From a virus (taxonomy: Duplodnaviria; Heunggongvirae; Uroviricota; Caudoviricetes), in IMG/VR virus record IMGVR_UViG_648276647_000018: a DNA stretch of 11,959 nt. One strand, written 5' to 3'. The first letter of the stretch is position 1. Every line of letters begins with the position of its first letter. The notes below the pieces were generated by a model, which did no database searches, was not told the DNA's origin, and saw nothing but the letters and a program-made list of their open reading frames with translations. The position numbers and the translations under genes were made by a program. Shown piece by piece: positions 1-11,959 of this stretch.

Positions 1-1212
1 GTGGCAAGAACGACACGCCCCCTGACCAACACAGAAGTTCTGCGCGCTAAAGCGTTAGAAAAGGATCTAACGTTACATGATGGCGATGGCCTTTTTCTGC
101 TCGTTAAAACGAACAGTAAGAAGTTGTGGCGTTTCCGTTATCAACGTCCAGCAACAAAACAGCGGACAATGATGGGGCTTGGTGCTTTCCCCGCCCTTTC
201 ACTTGCTGATGCTCGACGGTTAAGAGCGGATTACCTTGCTTTGTTGGCTAATGGTATAGACCCACAAGTTCAAGCTGAATTTATCGAAGAACAACAACAG
301 ATAGCTCTAGACAGTATTTTTTCGACTGTTGCGACCAACTGGTTCCAGATAAAAAGCAAAAGCGTTACCCCTGATTACGCTAAAGATATATGGCGCTCAC
401 TGGAAAAAGACGTATTCCCTGCCATCGGGGAGATTCCTGTCCAGCAAATAAAAGCCCGAACACTAGTTGAAGCCCTTGAGCCAATCAAAGCTCGTGGAGC
501 ACTCGAGACAGTGCGCCGACTTGTACAGCGCATTAACGAGATAATGATTTATGCCGTAAACACTGGTCTGATTGATGCCAATCCAGCATCAGGTGTTGGG
601 ATGGCCTTTGAAAAGCCCAGAAAACAAAACATGCCGACGCTGAGGCCAGAAGAATTACCAAAGCTGATGCGTTCTTTGTTCATGTCAAATCTGTCTGTTC
701 CGACTCGCTGTCTCATTGAATGGCAGCTTCTGACTCTAGTGCGTCCTGCTGAAGCTTCCGGTGCTCGATGGGCAGAGATCGATCTCGATGCAAAGCTCTG
801 GATGATTCCAGCCGAACGGATGAAGGCCAAACGAGAGCACATAGTTCCTTTATCCACGCAGGCATTAGAAATTCTAGAAGTGATGCAACCTATTAGCGCA
901 CATCGTGAGCATGTTTTCCCAAGCAGAAATGACCCTAAACAACCAATGAATAGCCAGACTGCGAATGCCGCGCTTAAGCGCATTGGTTATGGTGGGAAGC
1001 TTGTTGCTCATGGATTACGTTCTATAGCAAGTACAGCACTAAATGAAGCTGGTTTTAATCCGGACGTAATTGAAGCGGCACTTGCTCACAGTGATAAAAA
1101 TGAAGTTCGAAGAGCATACAATCGTTCAACTTACCTTGAACAACGTATAGACTTGATGAATTGGTGGGGTGAATTTGTGCACAACCGCCACCGCCTCATG
1201 CAAGCGATTTAA
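1..1212 (+). CDS. int: P4-type tyrosine integrase. The N-terminus is at or just beyond the window edge (GTG at position 1).
   Basis: The ORF is 403 aa. The N-terminal region (LTNTEV..., DGDGLFLLVKTNSKKLWRFRYQRP) is typical of P4/CP4-57-like integrases. The C-terminus carries HGLRS, LAHS and RRAYNRSTY, the catalytic R-H-R-Y signature of tyrosine recombinases. Confidence 0.9.
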   Translation: MARTTRPLTNTEVLRAKALEKDLTLHDGDGLFLLVKTNSKKLWRFRYQRPATKQRTMMGLGAFPALSLADARRLRADYLALLANGIDPQVQAEFIEEQQQIALDSIFSTVATNWFQIKSKSVTPDYAKDIWRSLEKDVFPAIGEIPVQQIKARTLVEALEPIKARGALETVRRLVQRINEIMIYAVNTGLIDANPASGVGMAFEKPRKQNMPTLRPEELPKLMRSLFMSNLSVPTRCLIEWQLLTLVRPAEASGARWAEIDLDAKLWMIPAERMKAKREHIVPLSTQALEILEVMQPISAHREHVFPSRNDPKQPMNSQTANAALKRIGYGGKLVAHGLRSIASTALNEAGFNPDVIEAALAHSDKNEVRRAYNRSTYLEQRIDLMNWWGEFVHNRHRLMQAI

Positions 1213-1239
1213 TAAGATTGCACAGCAAAGGAGTCTTAA

Positions 1240-2598
1240 ATGCCAAATAACTACCATCAATACATCGAAGACGTTAGTGATGATATAAAGACATGTCTTG
1301 AAGGAATGGGATGCCAACCCATACTTTTTGTTGGATCGGGATTAACCAAGAGATATCTTTCTGGCCCAAACTGGGAAGAACTTCTTCAGCAACTTGCTAA
1401 TGAATGTCCTAACATCGATAAAAGATTTGCCTATTATAAACAGAAATACCCCGAGTTGATTGATATCGGCAGTGTATTTTCTGATTCTTATAACGAGTGG
1501 GCATGGGGTGATGGAGAGAAAGAATTTCCAGCAGAGTTATTTGATGCAGGCAATGAGCCAAGTATTTATTTTAAATACAAAGTATCTAGTATTTTCAACT
1601 CATTGTTACAAGAAAAAGAAATCGTAAACAACGGTGAAATTGAACTTCTGAGAAAGATTCACCCTCATTCAATCATCACAACAAATTACGACAAATTACT
1701 TGAATCGATATATCCTGAGTTTACCCCCATTATAGGCCAAAAAATCCTTTACGCTAATCACGGTAGCATTGGTGAAATACTTAAAATACATGGTTGCTGC
1801 TCCACTCCTGAAAGCATAATAATAAACCGCGATGACTACGATGACTTCATAAAGAAGAAGAAATATTTAAGCGCAAAACTGCTTACTTTCTTTGCTGAAC
1901 ACCCTCTTCTATTTATAGGTTACAGCGCAGAAGACTCGAACATAAAAAACATACTATCTGATATTGATGAACTACTTTCAGAAAATGGAGATGTCATTCC
2001 AAATATATACATTTTAGAATGGACGAGCAAACAAAATGAAAGTGAATACCCACGCCGTGAACGGCTGATTCAAGTATCTGCAAACAAAAGCATTAGAATA
2101 AAAAGTATAGTAGCAAATGACTTCTCTTGGGTATTTTCAGCGTTTGGCGCGAACAGAGCACTTGATAACATAAATCCCAAATTATTGAGGGCACTTTTAG
2201 CTCGCACTTACGATCTCGTCAGAACTGATATACCTCGCAATCCTGTCCAAGTTGATTACCGAGTTTTATCAAGCATTAGCGAGTCAGAAGGTGAATTAGC
2301 GAAATTATATGGTATCGCCACATCGTCAGATGGTATGGCATTTAATGCCAGTTATCCTTTTACTTTAACCACGCTAGGGCAATCACTTGGTTTCAAAGGC
2401 TGGCATGATGCGAACAAACTATTAGAAGTAGTTAAAAACATCACGAACGTAGACATCAAGACATTCGATAACAAATACCACTATGCAATAATGAACGGTG
2501 ATGAGATTCAGTCCCATAGATATTCAAACTATCTTCGAGAACTCCTCGAAAAGGTTAGGGATGGAGAGGAGTTTGAGTTAGGAATAAAGGCTCCATAA
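1240..2598 (+). CDS. SIR2-like (sirtuin-fold, SIR2_2-type) protein, 452 aa, with a C-terminal domain of unknown function; candidate single-gene anti-phage effector.
   Basis: Strong SD (AAGGAG) 6 nt upstream of the ATG. Motifs: PILFVGSGLTKRYL (Rossmann Gly-rich loop, aa 27-40), IITTNYDKLLE (putative catalytic Asn149, codon 1684-1686), ILKIHGC (putative catalytic His184, codon 1789-1791) and LLFIGYSAEDSNI. The gene is clearly more AT-rich than the GC-rich P4 backbone. It lies between int and cos. Confidence 0.85.
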   Translation: MPNNYHQYIEDVSDDIKTCLEGMGCQPILFVGSGLTKRYLSGPNWEELLQQLANECPNIDKRFAYYKQKYPELIDIGSVFSDSYNEWAWGDGEKEFPAELFDAGNEPSIYFKYKVSSIFNSLLQEKEIVNNGEIELLRKIHPHSIITTNYDKLLESIYPEFTPIIGQKILYANHGSIGEILKIHGCCSTPESIIINRDDYDDFIKKKKYLSAKLLTFFAEHPLLFIGYSAEDSNIKNILSDIDELLSENGDVIPNIYILEWTSKQNESEYPRRERLIQVSANKSIRIKSIVANDFSWVFSAFGANRALDNINPKLLRALLARTYDLVRTDIPRNPVQVDYRVLSSISESEGELAKLYGIATSSDGMAFNASYPFTLTTLGQSLGFKGWHDANKLLEVVKNITNVDIKTFDNKYHYAIMNGDEIQSHRYSNYLRELLEKVRDGEEFELGIKAP

Positions 2599-2626
2599 TT
2601 ATTCATATAGCCTTACTACTTTTTAT

Positions 2627-2650
2627 GGCCGCTTTAATAGCGGCTTTTTC
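2627..2650 (+). terminator. Rho-independent terminator downstream of the SIR2-like gene.
   Basis: Stem ggccgct (2627-2633), loop ttaat, stem agcggc (2639-2644), then TTTTT (2645-2649). Confidence 0.5.
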
Positions 2651-2785
2651 ACAGCATTATTCATGCTTCTAGCACGATATGATGAACCGCAATAATCATA
2701 GCTAACAGGATTAATTTAAAGCATTACTCCTCGACTGAAGCGTGCTGTCATGCGAAAAAAATTTAAACTACCACGTTAGCGCGCA

Positions 2786-2804
2786 GTGCTTTCCCCGCCT
2801 CGCC
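2786..2804. other. cos site: 19-nt P2/P4 cohesive-end sequence.
   Basis: gtgctttccccgcctcgcc is the exact reverse complement of the P2/P4 cohesive end GGCGAGGCGGGGAAAGCAC as I recall it. Confidence 0.7.
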
Positions 2805-2906
2805 CGCACGCTTTGCGGGGCGGTTTTAATGCAGTTGCACTGACACGCTCAGACCGCGCCGGGAATGGCGCGGTCTGCAGAAAATGAGGCAGGGAAACGC
2901 ATGCAA

Positions 2907-2939
2907 AGCCATGCACCTTATCGATGCATGGCTTTTTTC
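2907..2939. terminator. Hairpin with T-run between cos and the psu stop; possible terminator, strand uncertain.
   Basis: Stem agccatgca (2907-2915) and tgcatggct (2925-2933), followed by TTTTTT (2934-2939) on the plus strand. A second inverted repeat gaccgcgcc/ggcgcggtc lies at 2852-2875. Confidence 0.4.
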
Positions 2940-2968
2940 AGTAAAAACAGGCGGATTTTCGGGAAATT

Positions 2969-3541
2969 TTACACAGACTGACGTGATGCCAGTTGCGCAC
3001 TTTTACGCGAAAAAATCATGTTCTGCGCAGGGGTGAATTTTTCACGGCTGTCGTCCACCGAAGCCGCGTCAGGCCTGAATCCGATGGTCGTTAAAATGTC
3101 GCTATCCTGTGCGGAATAATTAATTTTTTCCCCCTTCGCAAGCCAGGACAGAAGGGCTTCACGCAGGGCATCTGTGGCACGCTGTATGGCACAGTTTCGG
3201 GCAATGGCCGTCAGCTCACTGTAGCCCATCAGCTCCGGTGCCAGTGCCGCCGCCAGTGCTGTGCCGTGCTGCTGCATAAAATCATTCAGCCGGTCGCGGA
3301 TGCTGATGTGCTGAACGGCTTCATGCGAACGAATATAACGACCGGCGGCCTGATTCACCTGCCATTTTCTGACTTCGATAATATTGCGTAATTCGTCCAG
3401 GCGACTGACGTTTCTGCCTTCTCCTGACAGAAGCCGCAGGTATTCCTGTTCGGCCGCTGCCAGCTCATTTTTGCGTTGCAGCCATGCTGCTTTGTTATTC
3501 TGACAGGTGTCAAAGGCCTGCTGTAAGGCTGTGCTTTCCAT
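2969..3541 (-). CDS. psu: Psu, polarity suppression / capsid decoration protein.
   Basis: 190 aa. The translation MESTALQQAFDTCQNNKAAWLQRKNELAAAEQEYLRLL... matches P4 Psu in sequence and length as I recall it. It is the last gene of the sid-delta-psu operon, read toward cos. Confidence 0.9.
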   Translation of the reverse strand: MESTALQQAFDTCQNNKAAWLQRKNELAAAEQEYLRLLSGEGRNVSRLDELRNIIEVRKWQVNQAAGRYIRSHEAVQHISIRDRLNDFMQQHGTALAAALAPELMGYSELTAIARNCAIQRATDALREALLSWLAKGEKINYSAQDSDILTTIGFRPDAASVDDSREKFTPAQNMIFSRKSAQLASRQSV

Positions 3542-3614
3542 CGTTATCTCTTTCTCATCATGCTGAAGAATAAAAATACGGTGTGTGGCGACGGCCGGTG
3601 TTAACCGGCAGCCC

Positions 3615-4115
3615 TCATTCCAGACGCAGCGAATATGATTGTGTTTTTAACCGTACTGGCGGCAGTTCCTGTTTTTCATGCAGGCGTTCTGCCAGTTCGT
3701 CCGGCGTGACCGGGCGGACAATGAAGCGGGTGATGGTCTGAAGCGTTTTAAACACCAGACCACAGCCCGGATCCGTGCACACATAAAAACGCTCGGTGAC
3801 TTCCTGAGACAGACCCCGCGATGTTCTTGACAGCGCAAGGCCTTTACATCTCCGACAACAATATCCGGTAACAAGCATTCTTTTCGGGCGCTTCATGCTG
3901 CCGGAGGCTGACGTCAGTGAATCGCGGTATCTCTGTTTGCCTGAAATGTATTCCATTCCTGAATCTTTACAGTCAGAGAAAAAGCTTTCACTCGCTTCAA
4001 ATGTCGCAGAGCAATAAATATTCCGGCACTGTGCAATCATTATCTTGGTGCCATCGTCCATGAAATGTGCGCGACGGGTGTGAGCAACATGTCCACACGA
4101 CGGGCAGTAAATCAT
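3615..4115 (-). CDS. delta: Delta, Ogr/Delta-family zinc-finger late-gene transactivator.
   Basis: 166 aa starting at MIYCPSCGHVAHTRRAHFMDDGTKIMIAQCRNIYCSATFEASESFF, with a second Ogr-like module (YVCTDPGCGLVFKT). The start is the ATG at 4113-4115 with an AGGA SD. The longer 185-aa ORF in the track is an in-frame upstream extension. Confidence 0.85.
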   Translation of the reverse strand: MIYCPSCGHVAHTRRAHFMDDGTKIMIAQCRNIYCSATFEASESFFSDCKDSGMEYISGKQRYRDSLTSASGSMKRPKRMLVTGYCCRRCKGLALSRTSRGLSQEVTERFYVCTDPGCGLVFKTLQTITRFIVRPVTPDELAERLHEKQELPPVRLKTQSYSLRLE

Positions 4116-4846
4116 GACAGCAGTCCTCTGGCCTTCAGCTCTGCTCCCTGCTGGTCTATTTTGTCCTGCCACACCTTGCGCTGTGCCGGTGTGCCTGCCA
4201 CCTCATAATCCATGTGCGGGAGTGTTGCCGCTGACAGTCCGGTCAGCCGGAGAACCGGCTCGCCGGTGAGGCTGATTTGCATCTGTTTAATTTTCTGTTC
4301 CAGCGATGATTTCACCTGCTGCATGACAGCCTTTTCCGGTGCGACGTAGCCCTGATGGCCGGTGGTGTTGGCGAGCGGATTTTCCTGTACCAGAATGCTC
4401 AGATGCATTGCCCGGACAAGCGCCTCACAGGTTTCATTCAGGGCGTGTTCCAGCTCATGCTCTGCATACAGACTCAGAAGGTGATGATGTGCCTTCCGGT
4501 AGGCGGTGGCCGTGCTGTCACACGCCCCTTTCAGGCGTTCACGTTCGAAATTCAGCACCACGGCCAGATTGTCATATTCCTGTACCAGCTCCCGGCGTGC
4601 CACGCGCTCAATGTGGCGCTGTTTCAGCTCGTCGCTCAGGACACCACCGGCTGCACGAAAGGCCGTGCGCCAGTCGTCAGCGTCATTTCCGTCGGCCTGC
4701 GTCAGCGCATTTTTTTCCTGCTCTGCCCGTTCAATGGCCGTGACGGTCTCATCCATCAGGCGGGCGTTCTCAAGATGAGCGGCTCTGGCCTTTTCCAGTT
4801 GTGCCAGTGCGGGTTGCAGATATTCAGGGATGGTGTTGTCAGACAT
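4112..4846 (-). CDS. sid: Sid, capsid size-determination (external scaffold) protein.
   Basis: 244 aa starting at MSDNTIPEYLQPALAQLEKARAAHLENARL with a GAGGAG SD upstream. The stop at 4112-4114 overlaps the delta ATG (ATGA overlap). The 266-aa ORF in the track is an upstream extension. Confidence 0.85.
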   Translation of the reverse strand: MSDNTIPEYLQPALAQLEKARAAHLENARLMDETVTAIERAEQEKNALTQADGNDADDWRTAFRAAGGVLSDELKQRHIERVARRELVQEYDNLAVVLNFERERLKGACDSTATAYRKAHHHLLSLYAEHELEHALNETCEALVRAMHLSILVQENPLANTTGHQGYVAPEKAVMQQVKSSLEQKIKQMQISLTGEPVLRLTGLSAATLPHMDYEVAGTPAQRKVWQDKIDQQGAELKARGLLS

Positions 4847-4918
4847 TTTCCGGCTCCTCGTCACTTCAGGTTGAGAAAATTGTGACGTACACCGGACAGC
4901 AACACGACGCATTGCAGA

Positions 4919-4936
4919 TGTGCCAGCCCTGACACA
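4919..4936 (-). promoter_or_regulatory. Putative Delta/Ogr activator site (TGT-N12-ACA) of the late promoter Psid.
   Basis: tgtgccagccctgacaca is centred about 82 nt upstream of the sid ATG. A second TGT-N12-ACA lies at 4881-4898. Delta/Ogr/Cox-activated P2/P4 late promoters carry this dyad near -55. Confidence 0.4.
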
Positions 4937-5015
4937 GGAGACTCATCCTCAGACCGGCAAGCCAGGAAAAGGTCGCAGGAAAAACCGGCTTACTGTTTGT
5001 TTTTTTATATTTTAC

Positions 5016-5120
5016 TGTTCACCTCTGTTCACCATAAGAAAAAAGATAAGTAATACAGTAAGTTAAAGGGTGAACAATCGCAGTAATGACTGTTCACCGT
5101 CTGTTCACCACTGTTCACCC
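5016..5120. repeat. Replication origin (ori): six copies of the type I iteron TGTTCACC.
   Basis: Direct copies at 5016-5023, 5026-5033, 5091-5098, 5103-5110 and 5113-5120, plus one inverted copy (ggtgaaca) at 5069-5076. The region is AT-rich. It lies about 4.8 kb from crr, as in P4. Confidence 0.7.
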
Positions 5121-5169
5121 GTTGATGGGCTTTTTGTGCTGTTTATTACTTTTTATTTTTATTAATTCA

Positions 5170-5215
5170 CTGAAATAAATAAGAAAAAACAATTTGTATT
5201 TCACTATAATTTTTT
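5170..5215 (+). promoter_or_regulatory. Possible constitutive early promoter (PLE-like) for the vis-to-alpha operon.
   Basis: Perfect TATAAT at 5205-5210 in an AT-rich tract. I could not pick out a good -35 at 17-bp spacing. Confidence 0.25.
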
Positions 5216-5397
5216 CCAGCTCCTTCCAGAGCGTTTTAAAGCTATCTGGCGCTGATGTACAAAAAATGCACAGCCATTGTAAGGCTGCCGGAACAAATCC
5301 CCCCTGTTGCGTCTGCTGAAAATATTCACAAAATAAAGCGCTACCCGAAGCCGGACGGACTTATCCGGTGCTGTATGGACATTAACGAGGTAGCCCG

Positions 5398-5664
5398 ATG
5401 CAAGCTGTTTTTTCTTCCCCGTCTCCCGCCCCTGTTACGCCACTGATGCCGCTGCCGGACATCACGCAGGAGCGTTTTTTACGTCTGCCGGAAGTGATGC
5501 ACCTGTGCGGCCTGTCACGCTCGACCATCTATGAACTCATCCGTAAGGGGGAATTTCCGCCGCAGGTGAGTCTTGGCGGTAAAAATGTGGCCTGGCTGCA
5601 CTCTGAAGTCACCGCATGGATGGCCGGGCGCATTGCCGGACGCAAACGGGGGTACGACGCATGA
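5398..5664 (+). CDS. vis: AlpA/Vis-family helix-turn-helix regulator (excision and late-gene control).
   Basis: 88 aa with a GAGG SD 7 nt upstream. The core [48 protein letters not shown] is the classic AlpA/Vis HTH. Confidence 0.8.
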
Positions 5665-5756
5665 TGATGCCCGCTCTGCAAAAAGTCCCTTTTTCTGGCT
5701 TGCCTTTTTCCGGCATTTGCGGATATAGTTTTTCCGCTGCCGCAAAATCGGCAGCC

Positions 5757-6047
5757 GGGCGTAGGAACCCGTGTAACTCGAAGGCGACATATGACGCGCC
5801 ATGCGTCTTTTTTTGTGTCGCAATCAACGCCACAGAGCGCCAGATTATGGTGTGGCGTGTGGTTTGCCGTGCAGGTATGATCCTGTTCGCAATCGCATGT
5901 TATGCCACTGAGTCAATGGTAGCTCAGGCGGGGCAGCCTCCGGGCTGGCCGGTATTCTTCGAGGCCGGTATTCCTACCCCCGTCTGGGCTATCGCCATCG
6001 AGCGTAGGAACTCCGGCGATAGCAGTTATTTGCTACTCGAAGGAGAC
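5757..6047 (+). promoter_or_regulatory. CI-RNA-type immunity region: seqA-like and seqC-like direct repeats flanking a complementary seqB-like element.
   Basis: gcgtaggaac...ctcgaagg occurs at 5759-5784 and again at 6002-6043. Between them, cttcgag (5957-5963) and ttcctac (5971-5977) are the antiparallel complements of both halves. A 9-bp inverted repeat gctatcgcc/ggcgatagc lies at 5978-6023. Confidence 0.45.
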
Positions 6048-6053
6048 TGCCTT

Positions 6054-6251
6054 ATGGCTACAACCCTTACCCCTTCACACCCTGAATTTGTCTTTGTGTT
6101 TGCGGCTGTCCGTCGCGCAGACCGTCATCCCCGTATCTGCATGCTTCGCACCGTCGCCGGTGATGAACGCAGCGCCCGCCGTTCCCTTGTCCGTGACTAT
6201 GTGCTCTCCCTTGCTGCCCGTCTGCCGGTGGTGGAGGTGTCCCGTGCGTAA
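6054..6251 (+). CDS. Hypothetical small early protein (65 aa).
   Basis: ATG with an AGGAGA SD 7 nt upstream. It is the 3' part of the long 5616-6251 reading frame, whose upstream portion overlaps vis and the immunity repeats and is probably non-coding. Confidence 0.45.
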
Positions 6252-6531
6252 TAAAAAAGCCCCTCAGACCGTCTCAGCACGTCATGACGCCCGTGAACAC
6301 CTCAGCATTGAGGCTTACCATAAGCTCAACCGCGCCAGCGCCGTATCCCAGTTTGTTGGGGGTGATTTGATTCACCGTGAACTCTCCGGCCTGCATCAGC
6401 TCTACATTCCGCATATTTTCAGCTACCTGAATGAAGATATTGATTTTGTGCTGAATGAGCTGAAAGCCAAAGGCCTGTGCCGCGATTTTCTCGCCCAGCA
6501 GAAAGACCGGGGAGACAGGACGCATGTTTGA
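6244..6531 (+). CDS. Hypothetical early protein (95 aa, GTG start); possibly epsilon-like by size and position.
   Basis: GTG preceded by GGAGGT at 5-nt spacing. The start overlaps the stop of the preceding ORF by 8 nt. The epsilon attribution is from uncertain memory of the P4 map. Confidence 0.5.
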
Positions 6532-6979
6532 TTTTCCCCAGCCCGGTGAGATTTACCGTTCTGCCGGTTTTCCCGATGTGGCCGTGGTCGGCATTCTGGA
6601 AGACGGTATTCCGTGGGAAATGCCGTACCGCTGCCCGGACATTGTCTGGAATCCGTACCGCCGTAAATTCAGTATCCTTGTGCGTATCCTCGCTGACGGG
6701 CGCACCACAGACATCCCGCTGGGGCGTTTTCTGCGGGAATTTACCTGTGACCGTCCTGACCTGTTCAGACGCAGCCCCGTAAACCGGCATGCGGTACTGA
6801 AAGAAATGGCCGGAGACCCGGAATTACAGAAATGGCGGGAGAAATATCTGGATATTTACCCGCAGGACCCTGTTCCGGTCAGCCGGGCGGCACCGGTGGC
6901 GCGGGAATGGCGGGAAATTCCCCGCACGGAGCCTGACCCGGAAATCACCCCGGATAACAGTTACCGCAATTATCTGTAA
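6524..6979 (+). CDS. Hypothetical protein (151 aa); size and position fit P4 orf151.
   Basis: The ATG overlaps the upstream stop (ATGTTTGA). Coding-like composition, same strand as alpha. Confidence 0.7.
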   Translation: MFDFPQPGEIYRSAGFPDVAVVGILEDGIPWEMPYRCPDIVWNPYRRKFSILVRILADGRTTDIPLGRFLREFTCDRPDLFRRSPVNRHAVLKEMAGDPELQKWREKYLDIYPQDPVPVSRAAPVAREWREIPRTEPDPEITPDNSYRNYL

Positions 6980-7114
6980 TTAAAAAACGACACCCGAAAA
7001 ATTAAATGTGCGTATTCGCGCAGGGATACGCACGTCTTCAGGAGACGCAGATATGCCTTATCAGTTAATGCAACCGGCACGGAATGCAGTCATCTGTCAC
7101 AGGGAGGAAAGCAA

Positions 7115-7435
7115 ATGACCCCCCCCTTACCGCCCGTCTTACGCGCAGCCCTTTACCGTCGCGCTGTCGCCTGTGCCTGGCTGACCGTGTGCGAACGTCA
7201 GCACCGCTACCCGCATCTCACCCTTGAATCACTGGAGGCTGCCATCGCCGCTGAGCTGGAAGGCTTTTATCTGCGCCAGCACGGTGAGGAAAAAGGGCGT
7301 CAGATAGCCTGTGCCCTGCTGGAAGATTTAATGGAATCCGGCCCCCTGAAGGCCGCGCCGTCGCTGTCCTTTCTCGGGCTGGTTGTGATGGATGAACTCT
7401 GTGCCCGTCACATAAAAGCGCCGGTACTGCACTGA
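7115..7435 (+). CDS. Hypothetical protein (106 aa) immediately upstream of alpha.
   Basis: GGGAGGAA SD 5 nt upstream of the ATG. It ends 14 nt before the alpha start. Confidence 0.7.
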
Positions 7436-7449
7436 AGGAGAACAACACC

Positions 7450-9783
7450 ATGAAAATGAACGTAACCGCCACCGTCAGCCATGCGCTCGGCCACTGGCCG
7501 CGTATTCTCCCGGCGCTGGGGATTCAGGTGCTGAAAAACCGTCATCAGCCCTGTCCGGTCTGTGGCGGGAGTGACCGCTTCCGTTTTGATGACAGGGAGG
7601 GGCGCGGCACCTGGTACTGCAATCAGTGTGGTGCCGGTGACGGCCTGAAACTGGTTGAAAAGGTGTTTGGTGTTTCCCCGTCCGATGCGGCCGCAAAGGT
7701 GGCTGCCGTGACCGGCAGCCTGCCCCCGGCTGACCCGGCAGTGACGGCTGCCGCCGGTGCTGAAACAGACGCTGCCCGGAAGAACGCCGCCGCACTGGCA
7801 CAAACCCTGATGGCGAAAACCCGTCCCGGAACCGGTAACGCCTACCTGACCCGCAAGGGCTTTCCCGGCCGGGAATGCCGGATGCTGACCGGCACACACA
7901 GAGCCGGTGGCGTGAGCTGGCGCGCCGGTGACCTTGTGGTGCCACTGTATGACGACAGCGGCGAACTGGTTAACCTTCAGTTAATCAGTGCTGACGGCCG
8001 TAAGCGCACCCTGAAAGGCGGACAGGTCAGGGGCACCTGTCACACCCTTGAAGGACAGAATCAGGCAGGAAAACGTCTGTGGATAGCGGAGGGATACGCG
8101 ACCGCACTTACCGTGCATCACCTGACCGGTGAAACGGTGATGGTGGCGCTTTCTTCCGTGAACCTCCTTTCTCTGGCCAGCCTTGCCCGACAGAAGTATC
8201 CGGCCTGTCAGATTGTCCTTGCCGCAGACCGTGACCTCAGCGGTGACGGCCAGACAAAAGCCGCCGCAGCCGCAGATGCGTGTGAGGGCGTTGTTGCCCT
8301 GCCGCCGGTCTTCGGTGACTGGAATGATGCCTTCACGCAGTACGGCGGGGAGGCCACCCGTAAGGCCATTTACGATGCCATCCGGCCACCGGCTGAAAGC
8401 CCGTTCGACACCATGAGCGAAGCGGAGTTTTCCGCCATGAGTACCAGCGAAAAGGCCATGCGTATCTATGAGCATTACGGCGAGGCGCTCGCGGTCGATG
8501 CCAACGGCCAGCTTCTGTCCCGTTATGAAAATGGTGTCTGGAAGGTGCTGCCACCACAGGACTTTGCCCGGGATGTGGCCGGGCTGTTTCAGCGTCTGCG
8601 CGCGCCGTTCTCCTCCGGGAAGGTGGCCTCCGTGGTGGACACCCTGAAGCTGATTATTCCGCAGCAGGAAGCCCCCTCCCGCCGCCTGATTGGCTTTCGT
8701 AACGGCGTGCTCGACACGCAGAACGGCACGTTCCACCCGCACAGTCCGTCACACTGGATGCGTACCCTGTGCGATGTGGATTTCACCCCGCCGGTGGAAG
8801 GGGAAACGCTGGAAACCCACGCCCCCGCGTTCTGGCGCTGGCTTGACCGTGCCGCCGGTGGCCGTGCGGAAAAACGCGACGTGATTCTGGCCGCACTGTT
8901 TATGGTGCTGGCAAACCGCTACGACTGGCAGCTCTTTCTGGAGGTGACCGGTCCCGGCGGCAGCGGCAAAAGTATCATGGCCGAAATAGCCACCCTGCTG
9001 GCCGGGGAGGATAACGCCACGTCGGCCACCATCGAGACGCTGGAATCCCCGCGTGAACGTGCCGCGTTAACTGGCTTCTCACTGATACGCCTGCCGGACC
9101 AGGAAAAATGGAGCGGCGACGGTGCCGGACTCAAGGCCATCACCGGCGGCGACGCGGTGTCCGTTGACCCGAAATACCGGGATGCGTACTCCACGCATAT
9201 CCCGGCGGTGATTCTGGCCGTGAACAATAACCCGATGCGCTTCACCGACCGCAGCGGCGGCGTGTCACGCCGGCGGGTGATTATTCACTTCCCGGAACAG
9301 ATAGCCCCGCAGGAGCGCGACCCGCAGCTTAAGGACAAAATCACCCGCGAGCTGGCGGTCATCGTGCGTCACCTGATGCAGAAGTTCAGCGACCCGATGC
9401 TCGCCCGGTCACTGCTTCAGTCCCAGCAGAACTCAGACGAGGCACTGAACATCAAACGGGATGCCGACCCGACGTTTGATTTTATCGGCTATCTGGAAAC
9501 CCTGCCGCAGACCAGCGGCATGTATATGGGGAACGCCAGTATCATCCCGCGTAATTACCGTAAATACCTCTATCACGCCTATCTGGCCTACATGGAGGCA
9601 AACGGCTACCGGAATGTACTCAGTCTGAAAATGTTCGGGCTGGGGCTGCCGGTGATGCTGAAGGAATACGGACTGAATTACGAGAAGCGCCATACCAAAC
9701 AGGGGATACAGACCAACCTGACGCTGAAAGAGGAAAGCTACGGCGACTGGCTGCCAAAATGTGACGACCCTGCAACAACCTGA
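7450..9783 (+). CDS. alpha: Alpha: bifunctional DNA primase / helicase with C-terminal iteron-binding domain.
   Basis: 777 aa with an AAGGAGA SD. N-terminal zinc ribbon (CPVCGGSDRFRFDD...WYCNQCG). TOPRIM-like motifs (IAEGYATALTV, LAADRD). Walker A GPGGSGKS (nt 8951-8974). The length matches P4 alpha. Confidence 0.95.
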   Translation: MKMNVTATVSHALGHWPRILPALGIQVLKNRHQPCPVCGGSDRFRFDDREGRGTWYCNQCGAGDGLKLVEKVFGVSPSDAAAKVAAVTGSLPPADPAVTAAAGAETDAARKNAAALAQTLMAKTRPGTGNAYLTRKGFPGRECRMLTGTHRAGGVSWRAGDLVVPLYDDSGELVNLQLISADGRKRTLKGGQVRGTCHTLEGQNQAGKRLWIAEGYATALTVHHLTGETVMVALSSVNLLSLASLARQKYPACQIVLAADRDLSGDGQTKAAAAADACEGVVALPPVFGDWNDAFTQYGGEATRKAIYDAIRPPAESPFDTMSEAEFSAMSTSEKAMRIYEHYGEALAVDANGQLLSRYENGVWKVLPPQDFARDVAGLFQRLRAPFSSGKVASVVDTLKLIIPQQEAPSRRLIGFRNGVLDTQNGTFHPHSPSHWMRTLCDVDFTPPVEGETLETHAPAFWRWLDRAAGGRAEKRDVILAALFMVLANRYDWQLFLEVTGPGGSGKSIMAEIATLLAGEDNATSATIETLESPRERAALTGFSLIRLPDQEKWSGDGAGLKAITGGDAVSVDPKYRDAYSTHIPAVILAVNNNPMRFTDRSGGVSRRRVIIHFPEQIAPQERDPQLKDKITRELAVIVRHLMQKFSDPMLARSLLQSQQNSDEALNIKRDADPTFDFIGYLETLPQTSGMYMGNASIIPRNYRKYLYHAYLAYMEANGYRNVLSLKMFGLGLPVMLKEYGLNYEKRHTKQGIQTNLTLKEESYGDWLPKCDDPATT

Positions 9784-9799
9784 CCATCATGACTCATCT

Positions 9800-9825
9800 G
9801 ACCGGCATCTGCCGGTCTTTTTTTA
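9800..9825 (+). terminator. Rho-independent terminator after alpha.
   Basis: Stem gaccggc (9800-9806), loop atct, stem gccggtc (9811-9817), then TTTTTTT. Confidence 0.55.
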
Positions 9826-9840
9826 TCCCTGAATTCCCCG

Positions 9841-10140
9841 AAGGTGAACAATCCACTGTTCACCCTTCACCGTATATTCACCCGTTATCACACTGAAATT
9901 AAAAGAGAAAAATGAAAGGTGAACAGTGTGAACAATCAAATCAAAAAAACTTTTTTTCTTCCGGTGTGATTTCAGCACGGGAAATTAATCCCCTGCACAA
10001 GTCACACCGGCAGAATGCCGGAGGTGAAGAATCGAATGTTCACCCTTCACCCATTATTCACCATCTATCACTCTGAAATAAAAGGAGAAAACAGAAAGGT
10101 GAACAGTGTGAACAGTTCTTTCGAAAAAAATTTTTTTTCC
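9841..10140. repeat. crr (cis replication region): two direct repeats of about 120 bp at a 180-bp period, each with TGTTCACC-type iterons.
   Basis: Repeat 1 (9841-9960) and repeat 2 (10021-10140) align almost base for base, with a 60-bp spacer between them. Each holds ggtgaaca / tgttcacc copies and ends in an A/T run. Confidence 0.75.
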
Positions 10141-10203
10141 TGTACGATATAGCATCAATCCAAGTAAAAATGCGCTTTCATTTCACATTAACTTCCAGCC
10201 ATT

Positions 10204-10296
10204 GGTATACGATTAGGTATACGCACAAAAAATGAATTAAACAAAATCATTAAAAATCAAAGCAATACAATATTTATTCAAACTCCGCCAGCCCAC
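10204..10296 (+). other. Candidate right attachment site (attR): tandem ggtatacg arm-type repeats followed by a degenerate copy of the ssrA (tmRNA) 3' end.
   Basis: ggtatacg occurs at 10204-10211 and 10217-10224. ttcaaactccgccagcccacca (about 10275-10296) resembles the ssrA 3' end (ttcaactcccgccagctccacca, from memory) with three indels. The left repeat is not in the window, so this cannot be confirmed. Confidence 0.3.
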
Positions 10297-10428
10297 CAAA
10301 TAATGATTGGACGGTGTAAGGACTACACCAACAAAAACAGGAAGTTATAAGTCTCAGCAGGACACCGACCAGACGGTGAGGAGACAAAAAAGGATACGCA
10401 ACGGAGTCGCGACTCCCTATGACATTAA

Positions 10429-10452
10429 AGCCCGCTGATGCGGGCTTTTTTA
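10429..10452 (+). terminator. Rho-independent terminator in the flank upstream of csiD.
   Basis: Stem aagcccgc, loop tgat, stem gcgggctt, then TTTTTT. A perfect palindrome ggagtcgcgactcc sits just upstream at 10403-10416. Confidence 0.5.
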
Positions 10453-10882
10453 TTGGTCCTGACCCGCCCTGAATAGAATTCATCCAATTACAGCCCAGAC
10501 ATATACAGTATCCCTCAGCTCAGTATCAGCTTCTCGACAAATGGTCACTGTTATTTACCCGTTGCCAGAAAGAGAATAATTTGCCCCCATAGCCAGCCTT
10601 CCCGGAATCTGTATATTCATTAATATTGTTATCGATTCCATCAAGTAACATAGGTTGGATGCGATTGATCTTACTCACATTAGTCGACACGGAACTCAGT
10701 AAGTCGAACTCTGGAAAAGCAGTTTAAATAGCATTTAAACAAATGCCACCAGTTCGAAAAAGAGTATAAGCACACTTAATATATTGTTTTAATTATTCAT
10801 TTCCTTTCAACCCAATTCTTATCCCTCACATTACTTGTTATTGATTTGTTGTTTTTGATCACAATAAGAAAACAATATGTAA

Positions 10883-11959
<1,077 letters not shown>

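Follow-up and report, generated by a model that had tools for sequence, protein, structure and literature searches.

The element at positions 1-10298 of an 11,959-nucleotide (nt) stretch of Caudoviricetes DNA (IMG/VR record IMGVR_UViG_648276647_000018; the whole stretch is referred to below as the window) has its closest described relatives in the satellite phage P4 and in CP4-57, a 22-kb cryptic prophage of Escherichia coli K-12. The intA-proximal part of CP4-57, which was the part compared, consists of yfjH, alpA and yfjI and holds no P4 genes, and we take cos, psu, delta, sid and alpha to be lacking from this prophage throughout. A precedent is given by phiR73, in which a P4 backbone is joined to another integrase and site, another cargo and an altered CI/seqA/seqC specificity; it carries a retron as cargo and integrates at selC, and it is by this description that phiR73 is likened to the window. 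The principle of an altered immunity specificity is known from P4 and phiR73, and Sabbattini et al. are said to have described this retronphage in 1996 as P4-like and heteroimmune to P4. For the P4-like satellites of Type A seven core components have been described, and the integrases of P4-like elements are often swapped (Moura de Sousa and Rocha, PMC8628076). A hotspot for variable genes lies between psu and int beside cos, and SIR2 is among the uncharacterised defence-associated domains found there (Rousset et al., PMC9122126).

The window holds an almost whole P4-like satellite prophage at the 3' end of ssrA. With a probability of roughly 80% we read it as a sequence-intact Type A satellite prophage, a mosaic of four modules integrated at ssrA. 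The first module would be the hijacking, replication and packaging backbone, which runs from cos through crr and is 97% identical to P4, and the second an int/attP cassette that belongs to the lineage of CP4-57 IntA, has arm-type repeats of its own and takes the place of the leuX-specific cassette of P4. A single candidate defence gene with a SIR2_2 domain (PADLOC model PDC-S25), in the psu-int hotspot beside cos, would form the third module and an immunity allele unlike that of P4 the fourth. The genes and cis elements by which P4 controls its lysogeny, excises, replicates, manipulates the helper and is packaged are all undamaged within the window; that the element is active, that Vis is compatible with this Int, that a helper is available and that attL is intact in this genome is what we infer.

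The first-pass annotation had assigned a P4-type satellite to positions 1-10300. The span was essentially right, the element ending at 10298, and the designation holds for the backbone; the int/att module, the cargo and the immunity specificity differ from those of P4. The family, the hotspot and the exchange of integrases are published and near-identical elements occur in RefSeq genomes, so that the element is of an already known kind and the current understanding of the P4 family is unchanged. The finding serves mainly annotation, with two by-products: a predicted coupling of excision to loss of T357 from ssrA, and the eroded attR cores of relatives.

The backbone and its cis elements compared with P4

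Comparison with P4 (NC_001609) by blastn gave a single colinear block, window 2805-10137 corresponding to P4 11624-4291 at 97.0% identity, with 6 gap openings and 21 gap columns. The block is extended by P4 30-1, found at window 2775-2804, and the cos junction is thus closed, as expected of a prophage. Megablast against phage records likewise returned reference P4 (X51522 / NC_001609) over 2805-10137 at 97%. In a global alignment 227 columns differed. The insertions and deletions were single base pairs (bp) at 5168, 6024 and 6051, a gain of 2 bp and a loss of 11 bp at 5875-5880, and 9 bp inserted at 9786-9794, beyond the stop codon of alpha; the longest is thus 11 bp (5879/5880), and all lie outside conserved coding sequence. 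The segment most divergent from P4 was 5750-6060, which contains the immunity region. Searches by tblastn with the P4 proteins gave full-length, gap-free matches at 97-99.5% identity for the following genes (lengths in amino acids, aa).

2969-3541, minus strand: psu, 190 aa; 99.5% identical to P4 Psu over 190/190 residues (2972-3541); Pfam Psu 1e-88
3615-4115, minus strand: delta, 166 aa, transactivator of helper late genes; 97.0% identical to P4 Delta over 166/166 residues (3618-4115); two Ogr_Delta zinc fingers
4112-4846, minus strand: sid, 244 aa, external scaffold setting capsid size; 99.2% identical to P4 Sid over 244/244 residues (4115-4846)
5398-5664, plus strand: vis/orf88, 88 aa, AlpA-family excision and regulatory protein; 98.9% identical to P4 orf88; Pfam Phage_AlpA 7e-21
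6244-6531, plus strand: epsilon, 95 aa, derepresses the helper prophage; 98.9% identical to P4; Pfam Derepression 8e-51
6524-6979, plus strand: orf151; 98.0% identical to P4
7115-7435, plus strand: cnr/orf106, copy-number control; 98.1% identical to P4; Pfam DUF5375
7450-9783, plus strand: alpha, 777-aa primase-helicase and ori-binding protein; 99.0% identical to P4 over 776 residues; Zn-ribbon, Toprim, D5_N and Pox_D5 domains

Psu, Delta, Sid, Vis, Epsilon, orf151, Cnr and Alpha therefore have the same sizes as in P4, with the same architecture of the CI RNA region. The sizes given in the first-pass annotation for Psu (190), Delta (166), Sid (244) and Alpha (777) are correct if the genes are started as in P4; taken mechanically, the longest open reading frames reach 185 aa (Delta) and 266 aa (Sid). 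Its statement that frameshifts are lacking agrees with the gap-free tblastn matches, and the whole-element alignment that it had proposed as a check proved colinear at 97% identity, with int, alpha and sid, whose disruption would have spoken against it, all undisrupted. It had also seen no insertion sequence (IS), and none is present in the window. This absence is informative because relatives carry IS insertions in the backbone, namely ISEc12 in locus L006 and ISCro1 in locus L007.

The sites required for packaging, replication and late transcription were located as follows.

2779-2851, minus strand: cos packaging site, with the 19-nt cohesive end at 2786-2804; exact P4 19-mer GGCGAGGCGGGGAAAGCAC
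4919-4936, no strand assigned: TGT-N12-ACA dyad of Psid, Delta/Ogr target; identical to P4 9493-9510
5016-5119, no strand assigned: ori, six type-1 alpha-binding octamers; 6/6 identical to P4 and invariant in five other elements
5278-5295, no strand assigned: TGT-N12-ACA dyad of the late promoter PLL; TGT/ACA arms kept, 3 internal differences from P4
9800-9824, plus strand: alpha terminator; identical to P4 4604-4628
9838-10137, no strand assigned: crr, two 120-bp direct repeats (9838-9957 and 10018-10137) with five type-1 octamers each; 3 and 2 mismatches to P4

The cos 19-mer, the ori iterons and crr, all noted in the first-pass annotation, are thus confirmed. The cos 19-mer, the type-1 iterons and the alpha terminator are shared with P4 unchanged. 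All ten octamers of crr are identical to those of P4, which makes 16/16 with ori; the octamers TGTTCACC and GGTGAACA together occur 11 times in the window, always within ori or crr, against about 0.4 occurrences expected by chance. The cos region (window ~2776-2851) is 90-94% identical to that of P2-like phages in megablast, so that a cos common to P2-like helpers is present, as are the ori and crr type-1 iterons of alpha-dependent replication. All seven Type A core components were found at full length by tblastn to P4 and by Pfam, in the canonical order int, variable hotspot, cos, psu-delta-sid, alpA, epsilon, alpha, att. Judged by sequence, the element would thus show every Type A trait that can be tested in this way.

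The three type-2 ori decamers of P4 (CTTTAAGTGG and variants) are not conserved, unrelated sequence being found at 5223-5252. Decay of ori was considered as the cause and rejected, since five other natural E. coli elements match the version of the window; it is reference P4 that is the outlier in this respect.

The immunity allele

The features of the CI immunity region, which include both targets of the CI RNA, are listed below.

5700-5813, plus strand: PLE-like promoter and leader with seqA; TTGCCT-N18-TATAGT at 5700-5729 (putative promoter), seqA at 5751-5793
5912-5999, plus strand: CI immunity RNA of the C4 antisense RNA family; Rfam RF01695, 74.4 bits against a gathering score of 45
5996-6057, plus strand: seqC, second target of the CI RNA; GTAGGAA and CTCGAAG boxes as in seqA

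The Type A trait of an RNA-based immunity with targets upstream and downstream of CI is therefore present. The leader is also matched by the Rfam families c4-a1b1 (5723-5775) and isrK (5736-5813), both above their gathering scores, and the PLE region is near-identical to that of P4 except in both target boxes. The boxes of seqA and seqC read GTAGGAA and CTCGAAG here, compared with GTGAGAA and TTCACAG in P4, and the loops of the CI RNA read UUCCUAC and CUUCGAG, compared with UUCUCAC and CUGUGAA in P4. The loops are complementary to the boxes of both seqA and seqC; five nucleotides are changed with respect to P4, and the changes are matched in each of CI, seqA and seqC. The P4 immunity specificity of seqA, seqB and seqC is accordingly not found in the window, 5 nt being different in each of the three elements. 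Calculation with RNAduplex gave -37.8 and -41.0 kcal/mol for the cognate CI-seqA pairs and -29.4 and -32.9 kcal/mol for the cross pairs, the cognate pairing being stronger by 5-12 kcal/mol. The values for CI-seqC are uninformative, the seqC segment overlapping the 3' end of CI, and for this pair the direct comparison of the boxes was relied on.

Such compensation in three places would be expected only under selection for function, which argues for ongoing selection on the satellite functions and indicates a functional immunity circuit. Because the changes in CI, seqA and seqC are fully compensated, the element is probably heteroimmune to P4. The compensated differences also mean that P4 immunity reagents, such as P4 lysogens, should not be assumed to cross-react.

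Other compensated pairs of boxes were seen in L002, the P4-like satellite of E. coli 2022H047 (GTAGGAA/CTTCAAGG), and in L006 (GTGAGAA/GTTATCGG). The two CI boxes, of 7-8 nt, vary independently among elements and are always compensated in three places; four combinations were seen in four elements, which looks like a combinatorial immunity code. The allele of the window is common: a 100% identical copy was found, and 142 records are at >=99% identity.

The integration module and the predicted capacity to excise

The edges of the window are gene edges, the GTG start codon of int at base 1 and the stop codon of glaH/csiD at 11959, and no tRNA or transfer-messenger RNA (tmRNA) gene was found within it. 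The left attachment site lies outside because of where the window was cut and for no biological reason. The components of the integration module within the window are the following.

1-1212, plus strand: tyrosine integrase, 403 aa, GTG start at base 1, IntA/CP4-57 type, ssrA-specific; arm-binding, central and catalytic domains (Pfam Arm-DNA-bind_3, Phage_int_M and Phage_integrase)
10138-10276, no strand assigned: P arm of the attachment site; tandem arm-type repeats GGTATACG at 10204-10211 and 10216-10223
10277-10298, plus strand: attR core, like the 3' end of ssrA without T357; TTCAAACTCCGCCAGC-CCACCA, then AATAATGATTGG; compared with the empty site L004 and with attL of L002

The integrase is 63% identical to K-12 IntA of CP4-57 and 35% identical to P4 Int; its R/K/H-x-x-R/H/Y motifs are visible, and it is one residue off RefSeq WP_000124718.1. 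The homology with P4 stops at 10137, directly after crr, and the next 139 bp are occupied by the P arm, the repeats of which are GGTATACG, compared with GGGGGCAT-like repeats in P4. From these two observations it follows that the whole int-attP cassette has been exchanged relative to P4, in keeping with the frequent swapping of integrases among P4-like elements (PMC8628076). A leuX-targeting Int and attP, as in P4 in the strict sense, are not found, given the 35% Int identity, the ssrA site and the different arm repeats. Owing to the CP4-57-like integration module, primers for attB/attP polymerase chain reaction must be aimed at ssrA, not at leuX.

The left end of the element can be read from L002, in which the same int start follows the end of ssrA at a distance of 184 bp; with this spacing, ssrA, attL and the P' arm should lie just outside the window, so that only ~185 bp (P' arm and attL) of the element would be missing to the left and the circle would measure ~10.48 kb from the same geometry. 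In L002 the end of ssrA (GCCAGCTCCACCA) is followed by CTTGCTCTTCCGG and then by four GGTATACG-type repeats of the P' arm upstream of int, two direct and two inverted. The empty ssrA site, present in 711 of 5,426 complete E. coli genomes, defines attB exactly: in strain SK1144 it consists of ...CCCGCCAGCTCCACCA joined to AATAATGATTGG, and in attL the same ...CCCGCCAGCTCCACCA is joined to CTTGCTCTTCC. As regards the two attachment sites of Type A, attR is present, with the attL/attR identity block CCGCCAGC intact at 10285-10292 and T357 missing, while attL falls beyond the window. What marks a CP4-57/IntA-type module, namely an IntA-like integrase and a recombination junction in the ssrA end CCGCCAGC(T)CCACCA, is present.

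The 14-nt core of attR, CCGCCAGCCCACCA, is the 'psaA' feature of K-12 CP4-57 (NC_000913.3 2777972-2777985). Excision of CP4-57 is inducible by AlpA, deletes T357 and inactivates tmRNA (PMC10107115). Since T357 is deleted in that process, the crossover should lie in the 8-bp block CCGCCAGC, to the left of T357. An earlier view of attR as a decayed copy of ssrA with the crossover in the 6-bp CCACCA was dropped, the core of CP4-57 being identical and its excision deleting T357. By analogy, the attR lacking T357 is judged excision-competent for IntA, and excision of the satellite is predicted to leave ssrA without T357 in the chromosome, as that of CP4-57 does; a predicted tmRNA-inactivating deletion of 1 nt is of use to experimenters. 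In E. coli SK0832 (L064, NZ_AP046542.1 1315274-1315346) the ssrA-glaH site is empty, ssrA has 362 nt and lacks T357, and the flank allele is that of the window; among the matches listed it was the only exact full-length match to this flank allele. By its sequence this scar is the one predicted from excision of an IntA-type element with such an attR.

From P4 biology, mobilisation and helper-dependent packaging may be expected to proceed as follows. By homology with P4, the CI RNA would pair with seqA and seqC, terminate transcription from PLE and keep the satellite silent. In the presence of a P2-like helper, Epsilon, Delta and the helper proteins Ogr and Cox would cross-activate, Int and Vis would excise the circle of ~10.48 kb, and Alpha would replicate it from ori and crr. 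Sid would then shrink the capsids of the helper, Psu would decorate them and the helper terminase would cut at cos, the SIR2 gene being transduced along with the element. Among E. coli strains exposed to P2-like phages, the satellite could in this way spread a candidate defence gene.

The identity of 97% over 7.3 kb, with backbone proteins at 97-99.5%, might suggest that P4, or a strain variant differing from it only trivially, has integrated in the normal way; we give this hardly any credence. P4 integrates at leuX and the present element at ssrA, P4 carries gop-beta-cII and the present element a single SIR2_2 gene, and gop, beta and cII were not found in the window on comparison with P4. These differences, with an Int of 35% identity, refute the identification, and the arm repeats, the immunity boxes and the lack of the type-2 ori decamers also stand against it. 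The opposite assignment, to the cryptic prophages of CP4-57 type, would explain the ssrA attachment site, the 14-nt attR core without T357, the integrase at 63% identity to IntA and the presence of an AlpA-family regulator (Vis being 36% identical to K-12 AlpA). It is nevertheless very improbable, and refuted for the element as a whole, because the P4 backbone with cos, psu, delta, sid, alpha, ori and crr lies between int and attR, and because the part of CP4-57 compared, the one next to intA, has other genes; it holds for the integration module only.

A more serious rival, although we regard it as unlikely, is a grounded (domesticated) defence island, intact within the window, unable to leave the chromosome and kept for its SIR2 cargo only. 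The cause might be damage to attL or the P' arm beyond the left edge of the window, a weaker attR for want of T357, or a mismatch between a P4-type Vis and an IntA-type Int. Several observations count against an element that still moves. The attR of the window has a deletion of 1 nt with respect to the TCCACCA form of L003 and L012, and attL, the P' arm and ssrA lie beyond the window, attL having been seen in the relatives L002 and L032. A P4-type Vis is paired with a CP4-57-type Int and att without a common Vis box: a search for a Vis-binding or other motif common to this att region, P4 attP and PLL returned only AT-rich 8-mers of chance quality. Delta and Alpha carry 5 and 8 substitutions with respect to P4, and the circle would be roughly 10% smaller than the 11.6 kb of P4. 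The excised attP junction (P arm, 0-8 nt, CTTGCTCTTCCGG) was not found in IMG/VR, in JGI/ENA metagenome contigs or in GTDB genomes, a weak negative, as those collections hold mostly integrated copies. In addition, most sampled relatives have eroded attR cores and some carry IS insertions, which makes grounding a common event at this site, and defective P4 remnants with intact defence genes have been reported (PMC13586616). In favour of an element able to excise, the attR of the window is in the mildest of the damaged states and identical to that of the excision-competent CP4-57 (PMC10107115), and all backbone genes and cis sites are intact. Moreover, the three-way covariation of the immunity elements points to ongoing selection on satellite functions, and the scar at the empty site of SK0832 to excision from this type of site. 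The reading as an intact satellite prophage was preferred.

The attR junction is hypervariable in the relatives (L009-L062) after an invariant ...CTCCGCCAGC. The pristine TCCACCA form was seen in L003 and L012 only, and the CCACCA form lacking T in the window, in K-12 CP4-57 and in a few others. Nested deletions of 3-10 bp after GCCAGC were found in 12 of 18 loci (mostly from IMG/VR) and 23 of 27 metagenome contigs, counts that refer to sampled loci and not to independent lineages; a scan of GTDB representative genomes returned no attR variants. All the nested deletions share one left edge, a pattern that points to the integrase as their cause, and Williams reportedly noted in 2003 that this ssrA-specific integrase of the P4 subfamily seems to promote damage to attachment sites. 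It is tempting to speculate, though the odds are somewhat below even, that loss or mobilisation of the satellite is coupled to a switch of host phenotype through inactive tmRNA, that the nested deletions are integrase scars which progressively ground the satellites and fix their defence cargo, and that the window is a minority copy still able to move. To our knowledge, CP4-57 is the only element whose excision has been shown to leave an inactive tmRNA, and it is a cryptic prophage and no bona fide satellite. The 10.8-kb contig L032, derived from a metagenome in IMG/VR, was considered as a possible excised genome; its sequence, which extends from ssrA into the following island, proved to be that of an integrated copy.

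The SIR2 cargo, relatives and neighbouring sequence

The cargo gene and a further small open reading frame of the element are the following.

1240-2598, plus strand: SIR2_2-domain protein, 452 aa, candidate anti-phage NADase; Pfam SIR2_2 4e-27; replaces gop-beta-cII of P4
6054-6251, plus strand: Icd-like small open reading frame; RefSeq annotation of the homologous frames in L002 and L006

The best PADLOC model for the cargo was the candidate single-gene system PDC-S25 (E = 2e-84, profile positions 10-358 of 517), with weaker matches to the SIR2 domains of ThsA, LmuA and Dsr; the protein is thus recognised by both the PDC-S25 profile and the SIR2_2 domain. It is 100% identical to WP_001133507.1 and has the motifs TTNYD and KIHG, and its gene has a guanine-plus-cytosine content of 37%, compared with 55.5% for the backbone. 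Residues 377-452, about 75 at the C-terminus, are outside the PDC-S25 match, and residues 267-452 are without a Pfam match.

The junction of P arm, attR and glaH occurs in 1,099 of the 5,426 complete E. coli genomes, so that about 1,100 of them have a satellite at this position. The exact mosaic of the whole window is found in none of these RefSeq genomes, the best matches having 95% coverage at 98.0% identity and 85% coverage at 99.5%; this SIR2 cargo and this immunity allele are not combined in the set, though each module occurs there. The identical SIR2 protein with a near-identical int was found in strains of bovine, human and soil origin and in one from a bear. The pair lies directly beside ssrA in 2022H047, where it is joined to a different immunity allele, and downstream of another island in strain E47. 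The two att contexts, the varied immunity allele and the varied sources of the strains would fit horizontal spread and modular recombination.

The closest relative overall is L002 (NZ_AP029605.1 1125706-1135964), which differs from the window essentially only in the immunity segment. Its Int is 1 aa off and its SIR2 protein identical, the backbone has 99.2-99.7% identity, and the ssrA site and P arm are the same. In contrast, its immunity segment is swapped, window 5815-5914 being unaligned and the second box reading CTTCAAGG, and a longer stretch is missing from its attR (GCCAGCCCA), which borders on another island and IS100.

IS elements are a frequent finding in relatives, whether at this site or at others: ISEc12 lies between sid and alpA in L006 (3516-5818), ISCro1 between orf151 and cnr in L007 (7849-10464), and IS100 or IS1 just past attR in L002 (13587-15388) and L003 (13640-14337). 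Some relatives are found in tandem arrays with further integrase-bearing islands.

Towards the cargo, cos is conserved for only some 7 nt (GCGCGCA) beyond the 19-mer; 15 other elements have the same limit, and this cos-proximal GCGCGCA is the majority form among the elements compared. The frame 5661-6251, which includes the Icd-like sequence, is open throughout, likewise in relatives (listed open frame 5616-6251).

Positions 10299-10457 are native DNA downstream of ssrA, with a terminator hairpin at 10430-10452. In megablast this segment was ~85% identical to the 'tmRNA pseudogene / attP' region of phages LLS and Ayreon, so that other temperate phages have a copy of the ssrA-distal segment and presumably use the same site.

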